A stretch of 14,426 nt of DNA from a virus: UHGV virus genome UHGV-0061697; one strand, 5' to 3'. Positions 66 to 14,364 of this stretch are shown here, in pieces. The first letter of the stretch is position 1; each line of letters opens with the position of its first letter. A program made the position numbers and the translations under genes. A model generated the notes under the pieces. It made no database searches. It worked only from the letters and a program-made list of their open reading frames with translations, and had not been told where the DNA came from.

Positions 66-1979
66 ATGAGCAAAGTAAAAATCGGTGAATTAATAAACTC
101 ACTTGTTAGCGATGTTGAGTCAATAGATAACTCTGACCGTCCTCAAGGGGAAAAAACAAAAAAAATAAAGGCTGTTGCATTAAAATTTAAAAATGCATTA
201 TTTAATGACAAGCGAAAGTTTAGGGGGAAAGGATTAGAAAAAAGAATTACAGCCAACACATTCAATGCCTATATGAGCAGGGCCAGAAAACGGTTTGATG
301 ATAAACTTCATCATAGCTTTGAAAAAAATATACATCGCCTATCTGAAAAGTATCCTTTATATAATGAGGAGCTATTGTCATGGCTTTCTCTACCTGCTGC
401 CGATATTCGCCAGAGAATGTCAGCTTTACAGGCAAAATTAAAATTAATTCTCCCTTTATCAGAAGATTTATCTAATATCAGAATTGGTGATAACAAAAGT
501 CATAATAAGTTATTAAAATTATCAAATAAATATAAAGAGTGGCAATTCGCCATATCTGATTTAACTAGCGATAACTGGAAAGATAAGCGCGATTATTTAT
601 ATAAATTACTACAGCAAGGATCTGCCTTACTTGAGGAGTTGAATCAGCTAAAAGTTAACCATGAGATTCTCTATCATCTTCAACTAAGCCCTGCCGAACG
701 CGCATCTATCCAGCAACGATGGGCGGACGTTCTGCACAATAAGAAACGTAACGTGGTGGTCATTGATTACCCTAAATATATGCAAGCTATTTACGATATT
801 ATAAATAGCCCTGCTACATTAAATAATCTAAACACTCGTTCAGGTATGGCTCCTTTGGCATTTGCACTTGCAGCATTGTCAGGAAGACGAATGATTGAGA
901 TTATGTATCAAGGTACATTTACTGTTTCTGGTAAGTATACCGTTGATTTTTTAGGCCAAGCAAAAAAAAGAACTTCTGATGATATAACCAGAAAAATATA
1001 TACATTATGCGAAGCAAAAACATTTGTTTATTTAATAAATGTACTTCGCTCATGCCCAGCAGCATCTGATTTTGATGATGTCGTTAAAGGTTATGGAGAT
1101 AACGACACACGCTCTGAAAACGGACGGATTAATGCCATATTAGCAAAGGCTTTTAACCCGTGGGTTAAATCATTTTTCAAAGATGACCGCCGTGTTTATA
1201 AAGATAGTCGTGCTATTTATGCCCGTATTGCGTATGAAATGTTTTTCCGCGTAGATCCTCGTTGGAAAAACGTAGATGAGGATGTTTTCTTTATGGAAAT
1301 TTTAGGCCATGACGATGAAAACACTCAATTACACTATAAGCAATTCAAGCTGGCCAACTTCTCAAAGACATGGAGGCCAAATACTGGAAACGAAAATACC
1401 AGGCTGGAAGCATTGCAGCAGCTTGATGACGAAATGCCAGGATTCGCCAGAGGAGATGCCGGGGTTCGTCTGCATAACACAGTTAAGCAGCTGGTAGAGC
1501 AGGACCCCTCTATAAAAATCACGAACAGCACTCTAAGAGCATTCAAATTTAGCCCTACAATGATTAGTCGATACCTGGAATTTGCTGCTGATGCTCTGGG
1601 GCAATTTGTTGGCGAAAATGGACAATGGCAGCTGAAAATAGATTCTCCAGAAATCGTTATGCCTGACGAAGAAGAGCTGGAAGCAATACCTGAACAGACG
1701 GATGAATTATCAGAGGATGACGATCTGGATGACGACGAAATTGAGATAGAGGAAGAGGAAGAGGAAGAGGAAGAGGAAGAGGAAGAGAGCGTAGAAGAAC
1801 AGCAACCGCCCGCGCCTTCTTCACCTGTATCTAAGCCGGTATTTAAGCCCGTGAGAAATATTGGTGATGGCTCATACGTTGTTGAGTTTCATTATAATGG
1901 CCAGAATTATGCTTGGTCCGGCATTGCAAACAGCCCTATATCAGCAATGCAGTTAGCATGGCTGACATATTTCGGATAA
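66..1979 (+). CDS. telN: Protelomerase (telomere resolvase) TelN, 637 aa
   Basis: Full-length ORF from track. N-terminus MSKVKIGELIN...RPQGEKTKKIKA...NALFNDKRKFRGKGLEKRITANTFNAYMSRARKRFDDKLHHSF and the C-terminal half (...RVYKDSRAIYARIAYEMFFRVDPRWKNVDEDVFFMEILGHDDENTQLHYKQFKLANF...) match my memory of phage N15 TelN almost residue for residue. Length is about that of N15 TelN (about 630 aa). GGAG RBS upstream. Identity is from recall, not a database search. Confidence 0.9.
   Translation: MSKVKIGELINSLVSDVESIDNSDRPQGEKTKKIKAVALKFKNALFNDKRKFRGKGLEKRITANTFNAYMSRARKRFDDKLHHSFEKNIHRLSEKYPLYNEELLSWLSLPAADIRQRMSALQAKLKLILPLSEDLSNIRIGDNKSHNKLLKLSNKYKEWQFAISDLTSDNWKDKRDYLYKLLQQGSALLEELNQLKVNHEILYHLQLSPAERASIQQRWADVLHNKKRNVVVIDYPKYMQAIYDIINSPATLNNLNTRSGMAPLAFALAALSGRRMIEIMYQGTFTVSGKYTVDFLGQAKKRTSDDITRKIYTLCEAKTFVYLINVLRSCPAASDFDDVVKGYGDNDTRSENGRINAILAKAFNPWVKSFFKDDRRVYKDSRAIYARIAYEMFFRVDPRWKNVDEDVFFMEILGHDDENTQLHYKQFKLANFSKTWRPNTGNENTRLEALQQLDDEMPGFARGDAGVRLHNTVKQLVEQDPSIKITNSTLRAFKFSPTMISRYLEFAADALGQFVGENGQWQLKIDSPEIVMPDEEELEAIPEQTDELSEDDDLDDDEIEIEEEEEEEEEEEEESVEEQQPPAPSSPVSKPVFKPVRNIGDGSYVVEFHYNGQNYAWSGIANSPISAMQLAWLTYFG
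1749..1787. repeat. Tandem hexanucleotide repeat (GAGGAA)x6 plus partial unit inside telN, encoding a poly-Glu tract (13 E)
   Basis: Directly visible: gaggaa repeated six times from 1749 to 1784, then gag. In frame, so slippage would change tract length by two Glu per unit. Confidence 0.95.
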
Positions 1980-2107
1980 AGCATGGCCGTAGAATCAATA
2001 CCCGCCGCCATACACACATCAGATGCAACAAACCACGGTTCGCCGTTAATCATCACTACACGAACCTGATGCTCTTCCTGAAAGGAAAATACTGCTAACG
2101 CGCTCAT
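1907..2107 (-). CDS. Short BRO-N-like antirepressor N-terminal fragment (66 aa), possibly a truncated antB-like gene
   Basis: The N-terminus MSALAVFSFQEEHQVRVVMINGEPWFVASDVC resembles the start of BRO-N/antirepressor domains (F-x-F...VR...I-x-GEPWFVA-x-DVC). The ORF ends after 66 aa and its last 73 nt lie on the opposite strand of the telN 3' end. The ATG overlaps the stop of the upstream gene (ATGA). Confidence 0.45.
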   Translation of the reverse strand: MSALAVFSFQEEHQVRVVMINGEPWFVASDVCMAAGIDSTAMLYPKYVSHANCIADIGLFAMPDQA

Positions 2108-2337
2108 TCAGCCTCCTTATCGTGCAGCAATTGCGACGAGAGCGATGCTGAATAACCCTGTGCTTCGTGTGTGAGCTCACACGCAATTTGAAGAAGTTTC
2201 CCTGCTTCTGAGAGATAAATCGACGCCTCACAACTGGAGATTGTCCGATGGGCTGATGATACGAGCGCATAGACCTGAGCCAGACGTTCATCCAACGATT
2301 CCAGCAGGCCAACAGTGTTCATTTTTACCTGATTCAT
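2104..2337 (-). CDS. Hypothetical 77-aa protein, middle gene of the immA-like operon (antA-like by position)
   Basis: ORF from track (MNQVKMNTVGLLESLDERLAQVYALV...). Start and stop both form ATGA overlaps with neighbours (icd-like upstream, BRO-N fragment downstream). The antA assignment is positional inference only. Confidence 0.45.
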   Translation of the reverse strand: MNQVKMNTVGLLESLDERLAQVYALVSSAHRTISSCEASIYLSEAGKLLQIACELTHEAQGYSASLSSQLLHDKEAE

Positions 2338-2549: not shown

Positions 2550-2632
2550 ATATGGCGGTAGCCCAGACGGGGGTAGGAATACCGGTAAACGAAGAAACCG
2601 GCCAGCTAAAAGCTGCCCCATCTGAGCCACCA
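2550..2632 (-). ncRNA. Candidate c4/CA-like antisense immunity RNA in the leader of the icd operon (boundaries approximate)
   Basis: About 370 nt of non-coding leader upstream of icd on the minus strand. It contains stable hairpins (CCGGU-N10-ACCGG, CAGCU-UUU-AGCUG), a tRNA-like 5' segment (GGUGGCUCAGAUGG), and an element UUCCUACC complementary to two identical copies of GTTCCTACGC (plus strand 2538-2547 and 2704-2713) that flank it. This arrangement recalls the P4 CI and P1 c4 systems. Ends were not determined. Confidence 0.3.
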
Positions 2633-2796
2633 TAAATTTGGTGTACGCAGATTTTACACACAAAAAAACACGCTGGCGCGTGTTGTGCGCTTCATTTACT
2701 CGGGTTCCTACGCCCGGCTACGGGATTTACCGTAGCGGAGTAAACTTTACCGTCAAAACGACGCGCACGTCAATAATTTGCAAAGACATTTTACCC

Positions 2797-3918: not shown

Positions 3919-4110
3919 TTACTCCCCGTTCACCGAAAATTCACGATAGAAACGTTTCCACATACGATAAGTCTGCGCAAATTGTTCACCACGAAACATC
4001 GCCTTCCTGGCCTTCATGTTTTCCTTGTGAGACTTTCGGTCTATGAACCAAAACCATTGATGGAACACACAAAGCAAGAGACACAAAGATAATATCCAAT
4101 CATTACCCAT
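3919..4110 (-). CDS. Small hydrophobic/basic protein (63 aa), start overlapping the repA stop
   Basis: Internal ATG of track ORF 3919..4227 (MGNDWILSLCLLLCVFHQWFWFIDRKSHKEN...). The track's longer version would overlap 125 nt of repA. One TM-like segment followed by a basic tail. Could be spurious. Confidence 0.35.
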   Translation of the reverse strand: MGNDWILSLCLLLCVFHQWFWFIDRKSHKENMKARKAMFRGEQFAQTYRMWKRFYREFSVNGE

Positions 4111-7100
4111 AGAAAGCGCCCTGCTCTTCGTAGCTGCATGAGCTATTCCCCGTAATGTATTCACGTAACCGCCGCAGCTCATTGCTGGAAAGGTGATCCA
4201 TGAACTCTGTGAGGTACAGGGATGCAAACGTCATAGCTATGCTGGCTGATGACCATGATGACATAGTGGCCAACTCCTCACTGGAAAGCGCACTCATCGC
4301 CCAGGACTCAGGTACAGCCACTGGCAACACGGCCAAAGCCTCAGAAATTACTGAATGAGGGGCGTTTTGAACCTGCTCGTTTGTGGATCGCGTTTTATCA
4401 TCCATATATATATTGAGATCCAAATCGCGATCCATTTCGATGGCTGTCTTCTCGGCTTTACGCGTTTTTAGGGTTAGGCCATCTTTCTGACGCTGAACAA
4501 GAATATCCAGCATAAATGCCGCTGATTCAGGCTCAACAAAACGCAAGGTTGGACGCTTATCGCCGTCTCTGCCGCGACGTTTACCTGTTTTAAGGCCAAG
4601 AGAGTCGCAAATGTTTTTAAACAACGCTTCCGGCACTTTAGGCTTCCCTTTTGGCGTCATAAAACCACCAATGTGCAGAACGTTATTCAACAGGTCACGG
4701 CGTTCGGCTGTCATGAGGTTATCTCGAGCGAATTTGAGACGCTCCTGAGTCGCCTCGCCGGTCATAGTCTCAGGGTTGATACCGCAGTCGATAAAGTACT
4801 GCCGGAGAGTTGCTGATTTAAGCGCATAGAAACCGCGCGCCCCGACTTCAACAGTAGGAGTAGCTTTTACCTTGTGATCGATTATTCCAGGGAATTTAGT
4901 TTTAAAGACATCATCAGCCTGCTCGCGAGTCATCGCGGTCACTACAAAATATTGCCACTGTCCCGCCTGACGGTATGCGTAGGTAAAATTGATGGCTGCT
5001 TCTTCCCGGTCGTAACGACGAGCTGTTACCTCATCTAAAAGCATTGTTTCATAGCGGCGAACTTTGTCTCGAGCACCATCGAAATAGAATTTCAGCGTGC
5101 CTTCTTCAACCGGTAGTTTCAGTTCGTTTTCAATATCCCAGCGGACAAGTTTTGCCTGTTCTTCAAGCGTCAGCGCGCGTTTTTTTAGCAGTTCTTCACG
5201 CTCTGATTCTTGTGGAGTTTCTGTATTGAGGTGCAGATCCAGTGTCTGTTCCCACACAATATCCCGCGCTTCTTTACGCAGATCTTTACCGATATCATTC
5301 GCAGCATAATCGGTGGCCAGCGGTGATACCTTATAACCGTCGCTGTGCATGATGCAGATCATGTTGCTGGCGTAGTCGTTACGCGCAGTCGCTTCAATTG
5401 CGGCTGCTTTAATTTTCATCCTGGTAAAGTCGGTATTGGCCACCCCCATTGATATACGGTCGCCATCGAAAACGACATCCGTCAGTTCACCGTTCATACC
5501 TGCGGTAGCAAGCAATGCCTGGGCGAATGCTCGTTCTATTTTTTGCGGGTCAGTTTCACGTTTTGCACGAGCTTTATCAAAGCCGATAATAAATTCTTTT
5601 GCTGTACGGTCGCGGCGTAGCATTTGCACTGCGTCGCTGGGTACAACTTCACCACAGAACATGCCGAAATGACGGTCAAAATGTTTTTGCTCAATCGACA
5701 CGCCGGATGAAATAGACGGGCTATAAATCAGGCCGTCGTATTTTTTGACCATCTTTTTCGGTTGATTGGTAAATGCTTCAACTTCTGGCTCTGGTTTGTT
5801 TTTCTGGTTTACACACAGAAATTTCTTACCAGGAAAATGCATTCTCAGGGTGGCTGTCACATCTTCTGCAAAGGTGGAGCTGTCGGTGGCCAACATGATT
5901 TTTTCGCCATCCGATACAGCTTTCACCACCTCGGTCATGATGCGATCTTTTTCTGTATAAAAAACCCGGATTGGCTCACCTGTTTCGCGGTTGCGAACAT
6001 CAACAGGTAATTCAATTACGTGGATCTGCAGCCATGCCGGTAAACCTAGTTCTTCACGGCGTTTCATAGCCAGTTCAGCCAGGTCAACCAGTAGATCGTT
6101 CGCATCAGCATCCACCATGATTGGGTGTTGTTCCGTTCTGGCCAGCGCGTCAATTAGCGTATTGAATACAGCAACCGGGTTTTCCATAGCCCGACCGGAA
6201 AGAACGGCACGTAGCCCTTGCGTGGCCTCGTCAAAGCCAAAATAGTCGTGCTGGCGCATCAACGGTTGCCAGCAGTTTTTAACAATCGAGTTTATGCAGA
6301 TGGTCAGTTTACTGGCGTATGGAGCCATTTCCTGATAGCCAGGGTCCTGATAGTGCAGGATATCGGCTTTTACACCTTTTCCTTCTGTCATCATTTCCCA
6401 CAGGCCACCAATAAGGGAGACACGGTGAGCAACAGAGATACCACGTTCTGAGCTATGCATTAACGGTCGTAACAATCCAGTAGATTTGCCGGAACCCATA
6501 CCAGCACGGACGATGACTATCCCCTGTAGTGATTGCACGTACTTCAGGACATCATCGGTCATTACCGAAGTTTCAAAACGCTTATAGGTGATATGTTGAG
6601 GGCGTTTATTGGGATCAGTTATGCGTTCGCTGAAAGAGCGCGGAGCCTGGGCAATACGGCACTTTTTATTCAGGCGACGGGCAATGTGGTCTTTTACCGT
6701 AGCACGATAGATATTTTCCAGTCCCATTTCACGCAGAACGATGCAGAACATGTTAAATAAATCTGACGGACTGTTAGGAACCGGGCAGGTTAGCATGCCA
6801 ATATCCACCGCTCTCAGCAGCTCTTTGGCAAAAGTACGACGGTTATCCCGCTTAATTGTCTTCAGGCGGTTGAGCGTCAGAGATAGCAAATCAGTACCGG
6901 TTTTCAGGCGGTTTGCTGTTGCAAATAGTTGACGTGCTGTTTCACGAAGTCCACGTAGTTTGTGCAGGTCGTTGAAGTCACTGCACTCCATTTGCGGATC
7001 GTCTTCAAAAGTTGGATAGACGCAGCGGACATCGTTGAATTTCGATAAGATTTCATAGCCAGTCCGCAGGCCGGTATTCCCTTTTCCTTCTGTGGCAGAT

Positions 7101-8098
7101 TTCCGGTCATTATCCAGTGCGCAGGTGATTTTTGCCGCCGGGTACATGTTTACCAGTTGTTCCACAACATGAACCATGTTGTTAGCGGATACAGCGACAA
7201 CCACAGCGTCAAAGCGTTTATCTTTTTTCGTGGCAAGCCAGATGGATGCACCAGTAGCAAAACCTTCTGTAACAGCGATGTTTTGCGCCCCTTTCAGCTC
7301 ACCGATAACAAAGCAGGCACCGACGAAATCGCCGCTGGTTACTGCGCTGGTCTGGTATTTCCCACCTTGTTTGTCGATTCGCTGCCAACCCACAATACGA
7401 CCATCATAACGACCGTCCAGGTGAGCCAGAGGGATAGCCATATATGTGGTTGGCCCCCGGCTCCATTTCGCACTGTCGTGACTGGTCACGCGACGCACAT
7501 CACATGAACTAAAAACGTCACGAATACCTTTTTTAATCGCATATGGCCATGAGCCGTCTTCAGCCTGAGCATGTTCCCACGCGCTGTGGAATGCCAGCCA
7601 TCCCAGCAAACGTTCATGGTCCATTTGGTTGTTTTTCAGGTCATTAATTCGTTTTTGTTCTTCACGGCGACGACGTGCTTCGGCCTGACGTTCTATTCTT
7701 TCCCGTTCTTCTTCCGGTTGTGCGACCACGGTCGCATTATTCCGTTGTTGCTCACGGCGATATTCAGAAAACAGGAAGGAGAAACCGCTCCATGAGCCAG
7801 CATCGCTGCCTTTATGGACGAAGTTAATGAACGGGTAATCAATCCCTTTGCTGTGTTCCAGCCTGGAGTAAATTTCTACGCGTCCTTTCAGGCTCTTTTC
7901 GAGAGCTTCTGGAGATGTTTTATTGTATGAAGAGTAACGCTCAACCCCCCCGCGAGGGTTGAGTTGGATGTTGTCGGAACAGGCAGGCCAGTTGATACCA
8001 GCCATCTGTGCCAGCTCGGTTAGTTCATCCCGTGCTGCTTCAATTAGCGAGAACGGATCGCTGCCAAAGCGATCCGCATAGAAATCGTTTAATGTCAT
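4103..8098 (-). CDS. repA: Replication protein RepA (multidomain primase-helicase, P4 alpha / N15 RepA family), 1331 aa
   Basis: Single 1331-aa ORF; N15 RepA is about 1320 aa. Walker A motif GMGSGKST is present (RAGMGSGKSTGLL). Position between the immA-like operon and cB matches N15 organisation. Recognition is from memory, not search. Confidence 0.88.
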   Translation of the reverse strand: MTLNDFYADRFGSDPFSLIEAARDELTELAQMAGINWPACSDNIQLNPRGGVERYSSYNKTSPEALEKSLKGRVEIYSRLEHSKGIDYPFINFVHKGSDAGSWSGFSFLFSEYRREQQRNNATVVAQPEEERERIERQAEARRRREEQKRINDLKNNQMDHERLLGWLAFHSAWEHAQAEDGSWPYAIKKGIRDVFSSCDVRRVTSHDSAKWSRGPTTYMAIPLAHLDGRYDGRIVGWQRIDKQGGKYQTSAVTSGDFVGACFVIGELKGAQNIAVTEGFATGASIWLATKKDKRFDAVVVAVSANNMVHVVEQLVNMYPAAKITCALDNDRKSATEGKGNTGLRTGYEILSKFNDVRCVYPTFEDDPQMECSDFNDLHKLRGLRETARQLFATANRLKTGTDLLSLTLNRLKTIKRDNRRTFAKELLRAVDIGMLTCPVPNSPSDLFNMFCIVLREMGLENIYRATVKDHIARRLNKKCRIAQAPRSFSERITDPNKRPQHITYKRFETSVMTDDVLKYVQSLQGIVIVRAGMGSGKSTGLLRPLMHSSERGISVAHRVSLIGGLWEMMTEGKGVKADILHYQDPGYQEMAPYASKLTICINSIVKNCWQPLMRQHDYFGFDEATQGLRAVLSGRAMENPVAVFNTLIDALARTEQHPIMVDADANDLLVDLAELAMKRREELGLPAWLQIHVIELPVDVRNRETGEPIRVFYTEKDRIMTEVVKAVSDGEKIMLATDSSTFAEDVTATLRMHFPGKKFLCVNQKNKPEPEVEAFTNQPKKMVKKYDGLIYSPSISSGVSIEQKHFDRHFGMFCGEVVPSDAVQMLRRDRTAKEFIIGFDKARAKRETDPQKIERAFAQALLATAGMNGELTDVVFDGDRISMGVANTDFTRMKIKAAAIEATARNDYASNMICIMHSDGYKVSPLATDYAANDIGKDLRKEARDIVWEQTLDLHLNTETPQESEREELLKKRALTLEEQAKLVRWDIENELKLPVEEGTLKFYFDGARDKVRRYETMLLDEVTARRYDREEAAINFTYAYRQAGQWQYFVVTAMTREQADDVFKTKFPGIIDHKVKATPTVEVGARGFYALKSATLRQYFIDCGINPETMTGEATQERLKFARDNLMTAERRDLLNNVLHIGGFMTPKGKPKVPEALFKNICDSLGLKTGKRRGRDGDKRPTLRFVEPESAAFMLDILVQRQKDGLTLKTRKAEKTAIEMDRDLDLNIYMDDKTRSTNEQVQNAPHSVISEALAVLPVAVPESWAMSALSSEELATMSSWSSASIAMTFASLYLTEFMDHLSSNELRRLREYITGNSSCSYEEQGAFYG
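4384..4434. other. Candidate internal replication-origin element inside the 3' end of repA: 9-bp inverted repeat TGGATCGCG / CGCGATCCA around an AT-rich spacer with (AT)5 and three GATC sites
   Basis: Read directly: tggatcgcg (4384-4392) and cgcgatcca (4426-4434) flank ttttatcatccatatatatattgagatccaaat. N15-type replicons are reported to carry ori within the 3' part of repA (established knowledge). The function here is inferred. Confidence 0.3.
7477..7490. repeat. 14-bp palindromic motif CGTGACTGGTCACG (copy 2 of 3), inside the repA coding sequence
   Basis: Exact 14-mer identical to 13483-13496 and reverse complement of 2797-2810. Confidence 0.5.
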
Positions 8099-8221
8099 TT
8101 TTTAGCCATTCCATGCGAATTATGTTTTTTCGGGTTGAAAAAATCCGCAGGAGCAGCCACAATAAACGCATCTTGAATTGACGGAATCCGTCGCGTTACT
8201 GTGGCTGCTTCCTGAAAAGGA

Positions 8222-8249
8222 CCCGAGTTTGCCGACTCGGGTTTTTTTT
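8222..8249. terminator. Intrinsic-terminator-like hairpin between cB and repA (stem CCCGAGT/ACTCGGG, 6-nt loop, T8 on plus strand; A-run and UCCUUUU on minus strand)
   Basis: Stem 8222-8228 / 8235-8241 and T-run 8242-8249 read directly. Canonical on the plus strand, weaker in the minus (cB to repA) direction. Possibly bidirectional or an attenuator of read-through into repA. Confidence 0.45.
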
Positions 8250-8343
8250 CGTCTTTTTTCTGCTGCTGTAACCTGAGTCAACCCACAGAACATATGCCCT
8301 GCATTAAACCAGATTTACAGCAAACAATAAACCCCGTATTAAG

Positions 8344-8940
8344 TCATCTACCCTCAACCATGAATGATTTGATCGTTCCGACTATTTGGTGAACAAATTC
8401 AAGATCGCTTTTCCTGAAGATGGCGCGTTGTGAGTTTGTTCCATCCAGATAGTAATTTTCATCATCAAAACGGGCCAGGCGCTGGATAGTGATATTTCCT
8501 GCAGTATCACGAACCAGAACATCCTCGCCGGGGACCAGTTCCAGCGCAGAATCGACCAGGAGAAAATCGCCTGGCTGATAGTTTCCCTGCGTAAGATTGC
8601 TGATAGTTAACGCATACACAGTATTGCGCTGGCTGATGAATGGCAGGAATCGCTCAGTATTTGGAACCTGTCCCGGCTTCCACTCTTCATCCGGCCCACT
8701 TTCAGTTGTGCCAATAACAGGAATGCGATCAGGGTCATATTCTGTCCCATATAGCACCCAATGCACTGGCTTGCGTAAGCACTTAGCCAGGGCAATACCT
8801 ATCTCCAGTGACGGCATTACGTCGCCACGTTCTAAGTTTTGGACGCCTGCTATAGAGATATCGACAGCCTCAGCAACTTCTCGCAACGTCAGCTTCATCT
8901 CTAAACGGCGTGCTTTCAGTCGTTCGCCTCGTGTTTTCAT
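8344..8940 (-). CDS. cB: Prophage repressor CB (N-terminal HTH, C-terminal LexA/CI-like S24 fold), 198 aa
   Basis: ORF from track. N-terminal HTH LTLREVAEAVDISIAGVQNLERG; C-terminal GDFLLVD...GEDVLVRD...ITIQRL pattern typical of the S24-like domain. Divergent from a cro-like gene across an operator-bearing intergenic region. Confidence 0.85.
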   Translation of the reverse strand: MKTRGERLKARRLEMKLTLREVAEAVDISIAGVQNLERGDVMPSLEIGIALAKCLRKPVHWVLYGTEYDPDRIPVIGTTESGPDEEWKPGQVPNTERFLPFISQRNTVYALTISNLTQGNYQPGDFLLVDSALELVPGEDVLVRDTAGNITIQRLARFDDENYYLDGTNSQRAIFRKSDLEFVHQIVGTIKSFMVEGR

Positions 8941-8962
8941 ACTGTAATCATAAATGATCTTC

Positions 8963-9004
8963 TTATAGCTGGCTATAAAATTTATTTATTATAGCTAGCT
9001 TTAA
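8963..9004. promoter_or_regulatory. Two operator-like palindromes in the cB-cro intergenic region: TTATAGC-TG-GCTATAA (8963-8978) and TTATAGC-TA-GCTTTAA (8989-9004), centres 26 bp apart
   Basis: Inverted repeats read directly. Location between divergent repressor and cro genes is the classical place for repressor operators. A third palindrome ATCATAAATGAT (8947-8958) lies next to the cB start. Confidence 0.5.
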
Positions 9005-9031
9005 TTGTTGTTTATTGTTTATAATAACAAC

Positions 9032-9253
9032 ATGAAACCAGAAGAACTTATTCGCCATTTTGGCAGTGTAGAAAAAGCAGCGGCAGGGGTAGGTGTAACA
9101 CCCGGAGCTGTTTACCAATGGTTAACCGCTGGAGAGATTCCTTCATTGCGGCAAAGCGATATTGAAGTTCGTACTGCTTACAAGCTGAAGAGTGACTTTA
9201 CAACTCGGCGGGTAAAGCAGTCGATTAAGGAGAGTCGTAAGCGTGGAGCTTGA
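9032..9253 (+). CDS. cro: Cro-like HTH regulator (73 aa)
   Basis: Internal ATG of track ORF 9005..9253 (the track start is TTG). MKPEELIRHFGSVEKAAAGVGVTPGAVYQWL is a Cro/CI-type HTH. TATAAT at 9020-9025 sits 6 nt before the ATG, with no Shine-Dalgarno, which suggests a leaderless mRNA. Confidence 0.7.
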   Translation: MKPEELIRHFGSVEKAAAGVGVTPGAVYQWLTAGEIPSLRQSDIEVRTAYKLKSDFTTRRVKQSIKESRKRGA

Positions 9254-9938
9254 ATATATACGCAGCTGCGTCTCTACGGCATTGGCTGATGTTCATTATC
9301 GCCAGCGTGGCATTCTGGAGGTCCAGCTTGAGCAGATGCGTCTCGGTAGATCAGGACGGTTTAACAATAAACCAGTCCGGTCAATCAGTGTGGGGGATGA
9401 TAACTCATACGAAGTGTCCGTTCCTGCTGAGCCGGTTAGATTCCATCAGGGGAAAACATTTAAACAATCATCAATGTTGCTCACTGATATTGATTTTCAG
9501 AGCGCCAGCTGGCGCAGGGCTATTGGTCAGTTGAATAACGAGGAATCAGCCTGGCTTTATTATTGCTACGGATGCAAGCCTGATTACAACAATGATGTGA
9601 TTGTTTGTCAGTGGTTATGGCTTCATTCGGGGGGCGGCTTTAAAAAAATGAAGGCCTCCACGAAAAAAGCCATGCGGAAATTGATTTATTACGCGGCACA
9701 ACAGGTTAAATCAGAACTTACGTGTGCTGAGGCAGTTGATGAGAGAGAACAGGACAGGCATCTGAGTTTTCTACTGAATATATCTATTGATAGCTGGAGA
9801 CAAGATTATAAAGAACGCTGGCTTTTAATTAAGTCGCGATGTCTGAGCTTAAATCGAACTGCATTATTAAATGCGGCGGAGAAGCGCAGTGAAATCATCA
9901 AACGCCATCGGGCAGGAAGTGCCATTCTGCCTTTGTAA
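9243..9938 (+). CDS. Putative Q-like late antiterminator (231 aa); assignment positional
   Basis: ORF from track with GTG start and AAGGAG 10 nt upstream. It follows cro as Q does in the N15 immB region (cB, cro, Q). I cannot confirm family membership from sequence alone. Confidence 0.4.
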   Translation: MELEYIRSCVSTALADVHYRQRGILEVQLEQMRLGRSGRFNNKPVRSISVGDDNSYEVSVPAEPVRFHQGKTFKQSSMLLTDIDFQSASWRRAIGQLNNEESAWLYYCYGCKPDYNNDVIVCQWLWLHSGGGFKKMKASTKKAMRKLIYYAAQQVKSELTCAEAVDEREQDRHLSFLLNISIDSWRQDYKERWLLIKSRCLSLNRTALLNAAEKRSEIIKRHRAGSAILPL

Positions 9939-13770: not shown

Positions 13771-13798
13771 TTTACCCTGTAATTTTATACAGTATAAA
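13771..13798 (+). promoter_or_regulatory. Candidate SOS-regulated promoter: -35 TTTACC (13771-13776), -10 TATAAA (13793-13798), with a LexA box ccCTGTaattttatACAGta (13775-13794) filling the spacer
   Basis: CTGT-N8-ACAG with an AT-rich spacer matches the E. coli LexA box consensus taCTGTatatatatACAGta. It is the only such site I found in the window. Confidence 0.6.
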
Positions 13799-13830: not shown

Positions 13831-14034
13831 ATGTCTGAAGCAGCCGTATCAACTCTTGAACAACTCGATTCAAATTTAAGAGATATTGACGCCGTTCTGG
13901 ATCTGGTTAGCGTCACCCTGGCTTCTCCAGAAGCCAGCCTACATATTGGTGAGGTTTCACGACTCATCAACATGTCGCGAGAGATTGCCCAGCATTGTCA
14001 GAAAACTATCGCTGTTGAGCGTTCACATCATTGA
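13831..14034 (+). CDS. Small protein (67 aa) downstream of the LexA-box promoter; candidate SOS-induced antirepressor (AntC-like role)
   Basis: ORF from track (MSEAAVSTLEQLDSNLRDIDAVLDLVS...). The functional call is inferred from the LexA box and from N15 biology, not from sequence similarity. Confidence 0.45.
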   Translation: MSEAAVSTLEQLDSNLRDIDAVLDLVSVTLASPEASLHIGEVSRLINMSREIAQHCQKTIAVERSHH

Positions 14035-14076: not shown

Positions 14077-14364
14077 TTAATAAACAGCGCGAATATCGAT
14101 GGTTGCGCCGCAGGCATGAGCATATTTAGCCAAAGTTTTCATACTTGCCCCTAAAGGATTGCTTTCCAGGCGGCTGATGGCTGACGGTCGCAACCCCATT
14201 CGTTCAGCCAGAGCTGATTTCGTTAAACCTGCTCTTTCCCTCATTTCGTATAACATTTCGACCATCTCCAGCTCTTTGTCGGCCTCTTCATATCCTTTGA
14301 CGGCTTCTGGAGTGTTGAGGAGTTTTTCTTTTACTTCGTTAAACGGGATGCCTTTCGCTTTCAT
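14077..14364 (-). CDS. HigA-like antitoxin, XRE-family HTH (95 aa)
   Basis: ORF from track; HTH GLTKSALAERMGLRPSAISRLE. The ATG overlaps the stop of an upstream minus-strand ORF (TGATG) and has AAGGAG upstream. Confidence 0.65.
   Translation of the reverse strand: MKAKGIPFNEVKEKLLNTPEAVKGYEEADKELEMVEMLYEMRERAGLTKSALAERMGLRPSAISRLESNPLGASMKTLAKYAHACGATIDIRAVY

Follow-up and report, generated by a model that had tools for sequence, protein, structure and literature searches.

We analysed a 14,426-nucleotide stretch of the virus genome UHGV-0061697, referred to here as the window. Judged by sequence, the open reading frame at 8344-8940 encodes the CB repressor of an N15-type linear phage-plasmid. 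The features that place the gene are as follows.

66-1979, plus strand: telN, the protelomerase gene (ORF map)
4103-8098, minus strand: repA, 1331 aa (ORF map)
8315-8330: candidate OL operator TTACAGCAAACAATAA, half-conserved, between cB and repA (weak match)
8344-8940, minus strand: cB, prophage repressor, 198 aa (ORF map), orthologue of N15 gp38 (CB)
8963-8978 and 8989-9004: OR operators TTATAGCTGGCTATAA and TTATAGCTAGCTTTAA, palindromic 16-mers between cB and cro
9032-9253, plus strand: cro, P22_Cro family, divergent from cB (Pfam PF14549, E 2.5e-22)
9243-9938, plus strand: Q, Phage_antiter_Q (ORF map, Pfam)

The order telN, repA, cB, cro, Q is that of N15, as given by the ORF map and the N15 annotation. 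Hence, cB sits between repA and the divergent cro-Q genes on an element that carries telN. The start codon of cro is the ATG at 9032, in frame inside the open reading frame 9005-9253. By megablast, positions 8000-9300 share 99.5% nucleotide identity with Escherichia phage YDC107_1 and 97.5% with PhiR46_1. Identity is about 78% with N15, phiKO2 and several Klebsiella and Enterobacter telomere phages. The CB protein aligns with N15 gp38 across 198/198 residues (78% amino acid identity, E 4e-121) and matches phrog_4, 'transcriptional repressor' (E 2e-25). In the N15 record the matching gene is gene 38, an 'apparent prophage repressor', with flanking operator features labelled 'CB prophage repressor'. 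The preliminary description had named the protein CB repressor. Given the N15 annotation and the full-length identity to gp38, that name is therefore correct.

Palindromic 16-bp operators flank cB, the match on the OL side being weak. The two OR sites are near-identical to a stretch annotated as a CB operator in N15. The OL candidate has three mismatches to the OR palindrome; its position is equivalent to that of the N15 operator annotated at L001:9294-9332, L001 being the 19-kb region of N15 that we examined.

CB divides into an N-terminal DNA-binding domain and a C-terminal domain that resembles those of LexA and lambda CI. The parts of the protein that matter here map to the window as listed.

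8758-8919, minus strand: HTH_3 DNA-binding domain of CB, aa 8-61 (Pfam, E 3e-11)
8371-8727, minus strand: LexA/S24-like beta domain of CB, predicted catalytically dead, aa 72-190
8695-8700, minus strand: fossil cleavage site Ser81-Gly82, at the position of LexA Ala84-Gly85 (alignment)
8590-8592, minus strand: Thr117 (ACG), aligned with the nucleophile LexA Ser119 (lambda Ser149, UmuD Ser60; alignments)
8482-8484, minus strand: Gln153 (CAG), aligned with the general base LexA Lys156 (lambda K192; three alignments)

The C-terminal domain had been read by eye as S24-like, from the motifs GDFLLVD (aa 124-130), GEDVLVRD (aa 138-145) and ITIQRL (aa 150-155). Two results bear this reading out. The Pfam Peptidase_S24 profile matches aa 99-171 with 21.3 bits, slightly below its gathering cut-off of 23.3 bits. 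A homologue search with CB gave 63 relatives, and P0054 (201 aa, 43% identical to CB, E 2e-39) is a canonical S24 protein. P0054 contains TQAGPD, VVGDSMKG and VMVKRL, and so has every catalytic feature (A-G, GDSM and K). In the alignment it links CB to the enzymes unambiguously. The C-terminal domain of CB has the LexA-like beta-fold of self-cleaving S24 repressors. We conclude from these comparisons that it is a degenerate S24-like domain and no chance look-alike.

The catalytic positions were located by sequence and profile alignments. CB was aligned using MAFFT with E. coli LexA, lambda CI and UmuD, the sequences being taken from annotated records. As an independent test of the register, a profile of the CB-family C-terminal domain, built with P0054 left out, was used in hmmsearch. 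Three alignments agree on one register: S81-G82, T117 and Q153. In the MAFFT alignment, CB has no G-x-S-M motif where LexA, lambda CI and UmuD have one. The residue at this position is Thr117, in 'SNLTQ', which bears out the earlier observation that the nucleophile motif is missing. Ser114 of CB, in 'TISNL', aligns with LexA Ser116, which is not the nucleophile. The CB stretch ITIQRL aligns with VTVKRL, FTFKKL and FTVKKL of LexA, lambda CI and UmuD, respectively. The replacement of Lys by Gln, which the preliminary description had proposed, holds in all three alignments. That description had also called for a profile alignment of the catalytic positions, and the profile places neither Ser nor Lys there. 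All three of the features tested for a self-cleaving S24 repressor (Ser, Lys and Ala-Gly) are replaced. On this alignment evidence, CB is without the Ser-Lys dyad, and also without the Ala of the Ala-Gly cleavage site.

Within the CB family the two catalytic columns are not fixed. At the nucleophile column this protein has Thr, CBs that are 99.5% identical have Ala, as seen among 53 loci on viral contigs, and those of N15 type have Val or Ile. Other members of the family have V, I, T, F, L, D, K, S or N at this column. The Lys column is occupied by Q, Y, F, L, M or G, with K only in P0054. In N15-type CBs the S81 column is S (T in N15 itself), the G82 column is G and the K column is Q. Such variability is as predicted if catalytic constraint has been lost. 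Since P0054, at 43% identity, keeps Ala-Gly, G-D-S-M and Lys, the dyad was lost within the CB lineage.

Two further features, which bear on the route of induction, lie at the far end of the window.

13777-13792, plus strand: LexA (SOS) box CTGTAATTTTATACAG, 38 nt upstream of antC
13831-14034, plus strand: antC, 67 aa, predicted SOS-controlled antirepressor orthologue (homology to an N15 ORF)

The box is the only perfect CTGT-N8-ACAG in the window. It aligns in position with the N15 box, CTGTGTTTATATACAG, as does the surrounding sequence, and the N15 box is the only perfect one in L001. The AntC protein is 56% identical (E 6e-25) to the N15 open reading frame behind that box. It also matches phrog_6301 (E 2e-35) and phrog_10889, 'anti-repressor' (E 6e-8). 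Hence, the element has both an antC orthologue and a perfect LexA box, as a LexA-controlled antirepressor system would. A scan for simple sigma-70 consensus promoters and for terminators found neither around antC. That the promoter overlaps the LexA box is therefore suggested solely by conservation with N15.

In the N15 RefSeq record (NC_001901), antC is not annotated as a coding sequence. It lies at 14830-15069 of L001, about 39592-39831 of the record. Annotated N15 gp47 was considered as the AntC counterpart and rejected. It gave no BLASTP match, and the true counterpart is the unannotated open reading frame behind the N15 box. Downstream, an HTH_3 antitoxin-like gene (14077-14364, minus strand), homologous to N15 gene 48, converges on antC. 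The partner of gene 48 in N15 is gene 49, a RelE/ParE toxin; a toxin gene in this element would lie past the end of the window.

Work on N15 presents AntC as an antirepressor under the control of LexA (Mardanov & Ravin 2007, cited in PMC4488713 and PMC3121763). The same two papers carry the report that AntC binds CB and relieves repression, and PMC3121763 lists N15 AntC with 186 Tum among LexA-controlled antirepressors. Mitomycin C induction is used to make N15 lysates, so SOS induction does occur. The preliminary description had suggested that a repressor of this kind would fit induction by an antirepressor. The AntC orthologue, its conserved perfect LexA box and an immA module, described below, agree with that suggestion. 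For the present element, binding of AntC to CB and of LexA to the box is extrapolated from N15.

We surveyed the surroundings of cB in related loci. Where the CB was non-catalytic, an AntC homologue with a perfect LexA box no more than 150 nt upstream was found at 52 of the 54 informative loci; two further loci, with flanks too short, were left out. The loci are mostly close relatives, many of them near-identical, and some are two copies from one contig. Such inverted copies of the cB region, two per IMG/VR contig, are L016/L017, L030/L033, L038/L040, L044/L052 and L050/L053. They are as expected if hairpin-ended linear plasmids had been assembled as head-to-head dimers, and they inflate the locus counts. 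The correlation between dyad loss and antC therefore rests on few independent lineages and one catalytic comparator. L054 and L057 are the exceptions; in these non-catalytic relatives, which are more distant, the AntC/AntA-like gene has no LexA box.

The catalytic comparator is P0054. Its gene lies at 10001-10606 of L005, a Logan SRR11077329 contig, and adjoins the same cro-Q genes. Over the 10 kb that run from cro to the lysis genes, L005 carries neither a LexA box nor a homologue of AntC or AntA. This would fit direct self-cleavage making an antirepressor unnecessary, in what is a single case. By sequence, P0054 is a possible catalytic comparator within the CB family, and it looks like an enterobacterial counterpart of the autoproteolytic telomere-phage cI proteins within that family. 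A lone catalytic relative of CB without a LexA-boxed antC is a small comparative addition to what is described for N15.

The window also contains a second antirepressor module, immA.

1907-2107, minus strand: antB, a truncated 66-aa ORF of which only the first 37 aa match N15 gp30
2104-2337, minus strand: antA, immA antirepressor and antC paralogue, 66% identity to N15 gp31
2551-2637, minus strand: C4-type antisense RNA, the CA RNA of immA (Rfam RF01695, 73.6 bits, E 4e-13)

The module also has an icd-like open reading frame, which matches the C-terminal part of N15 gp32 at 93% identity. In N15, the C4-type RNA controls antA expression (Ravin et al. 1999, as cited in later work). Full-length antB, a Bro-N antirepressor-like gene, is N15 gene 30 and encodes 264 aa. 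The 3' end of the truncated antB overlaps the telN stop codon. The truncation is similar in eight close relatives (aa 1-52 only), and antB is full-length in four elements with the same CB. Directly upstream of the C4 RNA, at 2663-2736 on the minus strand, is an isrK-like RNA (Rfam RF01394, 62.5 bits). Together, the two RNAs look like the leader and target arrangement of P1- and P7-type immI regions.

AntA and AntC are related. BLASTP at default settings missed the relationship, which was recovered by Smith-Waterman alignment with shuffles, by tblastn without composition correction and by PHROGs. The Smith-Waterman score is 77, compared with 26 +/- 4.9 for shuffles. The proteins are about 30% identical, ungapped, over 52 aa, and both match phrog_6301 at about 1e-35. 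This paralogy may already have been noted in the N15 literature. AntA would be controlled by RNA and AntC by LexA, and since the two are related they probably have the same repressor as target.

The balance between the two antirepressors could be drawn differently. CB might be inactivated mainly through immA, by AntA freed from the C4-type (CA) RNA, or by another factor acting in trans, leaving antC minor or redundant. The window carries the CA RNA, icd and antA as a complete unit, AntA and its paralogue AntC belong to one PHROG, and the two distant exceptions described above show that AntC/AntA-like genes can lack LexA boxes. All of this would suit an immA-led induction. We nevertheless consider it unlikely, because the LexA box and antC are kept in nearly all sampled relatives and the N15 literature credits AntC with SOS induction. 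Moreover, a leading role for immA would add to the main explanation of the repressor and not replace it.

The main explanation requires that CB is not cleaved. For N15 this has been determined by experiment: the repressor was uncleaved after SOS induction with ciprofloxacin (Silpe et al. 2023, PMC10432266, Fig. 1b). In the same study, 210/271 cI proteins of telN-repA phages were N15-like, had no predicted catalytic sites and were classed as non-proteolytic. By extrapolation from N15 to a protein that is 78% identical, CB of this element most likely cannot cut itself on RecA filaments. The two proteins differ at 22% of positions, and only the present one carries a hydroxyl residue (Thr) where the nucleophile would be.

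That Thr raises the prospect of non-canonical self-cleavage. Thr117 would attack Ser81-Gly82, helped by some other base, and CB would respond directly to RecA* as lambda CI does. Thr stands in the exact nucleophile column, and the strongly conserved cleavage-site loop, P-x-x-G-T-T-x-x-G-P, includes an invariant Gly82. We regard such cleavage as highly improbable. Gln stands in the place of the general base in this protein, and relatives have Q, Y, F, L, M or G there. CB has also lost the G-x-S-M context. The residue equivalent to Thr117 is Ala in the 99.5%-identical CBs, and Val or Ile in the N15-type, and Thr is therefore no conserved substitute nucleophile. In addition, N15 CB stays intact after SOS induction.

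Two further alternatives deserve hardly any credence. If the C-terminal domain were unrelated to S24 peptidases, its likeness would be due to chance and the dyad would never have been present; the sub-threshold Pfam score leans this way, as does a phmmer search of PDB sequences that reaches UmuD only at E 0.7, and P0054 runs counter to it. A dedicated protease cutting CB in trans on induction, as ImmA does with ImmR in ICEBs1, is rejected because a search of the window ORFs found no protease domain of the metalloprotease or any other type, and N15 CB is intact after SOS induction.

Hence, we favour, with high confidence, a non-cleaving CB of N15 type with a dead S24-derived domain and indirect sensing of SOS through LexA and AntC. 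The N-terminal HTH domain would bind the two palindromic OR sites, and probably also an operator upstream of repA. On its operators, CB would keep cro-Q and replication repressed. The C-terminal domain would descend from the self-cleaving LexA/CI (S24) type, with Ser changed to Thr117, Lys to Gln153 and Ala to Ser81. Because Ser, Lys and the scissile Ala are lost, this domain is most likely non-cleaving and would serve only in oligomerisation and partner binding. DNA damage would be sensed indirectly. Host LexA would occupy the box 38 nt upstream of antC, probably over the antC promoter. RecA* would provoke LexA self-cleavage, AntC would be made, and AntC would bind CB and take it off its operators. 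The paralogous AntA, silenced by the C4-type antisense RNA of immA, would provide a second input that is independent of SOS.

The residue replacements, the fold, the orthology of CB and AntC with their N15 counterparts and the conserved LexA box are observed here. Inactivation of CB by AntC, repression of antC by LexA and the uncleaved state of CB come from the N15 literature, and we infer the same for the 78%-identical protein. Such a system explains how this phage-plasmid senses DNA damage, with host LexA and a small antirepressor as intermediaries and no self-cleavage of the repressor. The mechanism itself is already known. Publications on N15 set it out (Mardanov & Ravin 2007, as cited in later papers; Silpe et al. 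2023, PMC10432266), and because it is established there the window adds only one more member.

Few parts of the C-terminal half of CB are as well conserved as the former cleavage-site loop. Within the family P74, G77 and G82 are invariant, and T79 and P83 nearly so. One speculative reading, which we think rather unlikely, is that the dead S24 domain has been repurposed, with the cleavage loop and the active-site cleft forming a docking surface for AntA and AntC. If so, a small phage protein would now act as the ligand of the domain, as RecA* does for LexA and lambda CI.

Comparison with known systems places the element closest to N15. Shared with N15 CB/AntC are the repA-cB-cro-Q synteny, the operator palindromes, loss of Ser, Lys and the scissile Ala, a LexA-boxed antC and immA. 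The differences are at the level of sequence only: the nucleophile column is Ile in N15 and Thr here, AntC is 56% identical and antB is truncated. VP882 and its relatives (Silpe et al., PMC10432266) are likewise telN-repA linear phage-plasmids with a cI-like repressor adjoining repA. However, VP882-type cI proteins retain their catalytic residues and undergo cleavage when SOS is induced, and they are accompanied by separate, SOS-independent antirepressor modules (PMC10432266). LexA, lambda CI and UmuD (MEROPS S24) resemble CB in their two domains, the C-terminal fold and the G-D-x-L-x-V and x-T-x-x-R-L strands. They differ in that Ser, Lys and the Ala of Ala-Gly are all replaced in CB, and in that N15 CB is uncleaved. 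Coliphage 186 also uses a LexA-controlled antirepressor, and its CI/Tum pair has no detectable sequence relationship to CB/AntC. Tum, of 146 aa with a DinI-like half, is unrelated to AntC, and 186 CI is a 14-mer wheel. For the Gifsy repressors GfoR and GtgR, SOS induction occurs by antirepressor binding without repressor cleavage (Lemire et al. 2011). As here, the LexA-controlled antirepressor gene is located outside the immunity region. In contrast, the Gifsy repressors belong to a DicA/RacR-like family that has no S24-like domain, and the antirepressors of the two systems are not related.

These results also bear on annotation. Naming CB a 'LexA family' regulator or an 'S24 peptidase' is to be avoided, and some database records do so. 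The N15 RefSeq record (NC_001901) gives gene 38 (cB) the label 'LexA family transcriptional regulator'. Database entries for related proteins use the name 'S24 family peptidase', which misleads where the protein is non-catalytic.
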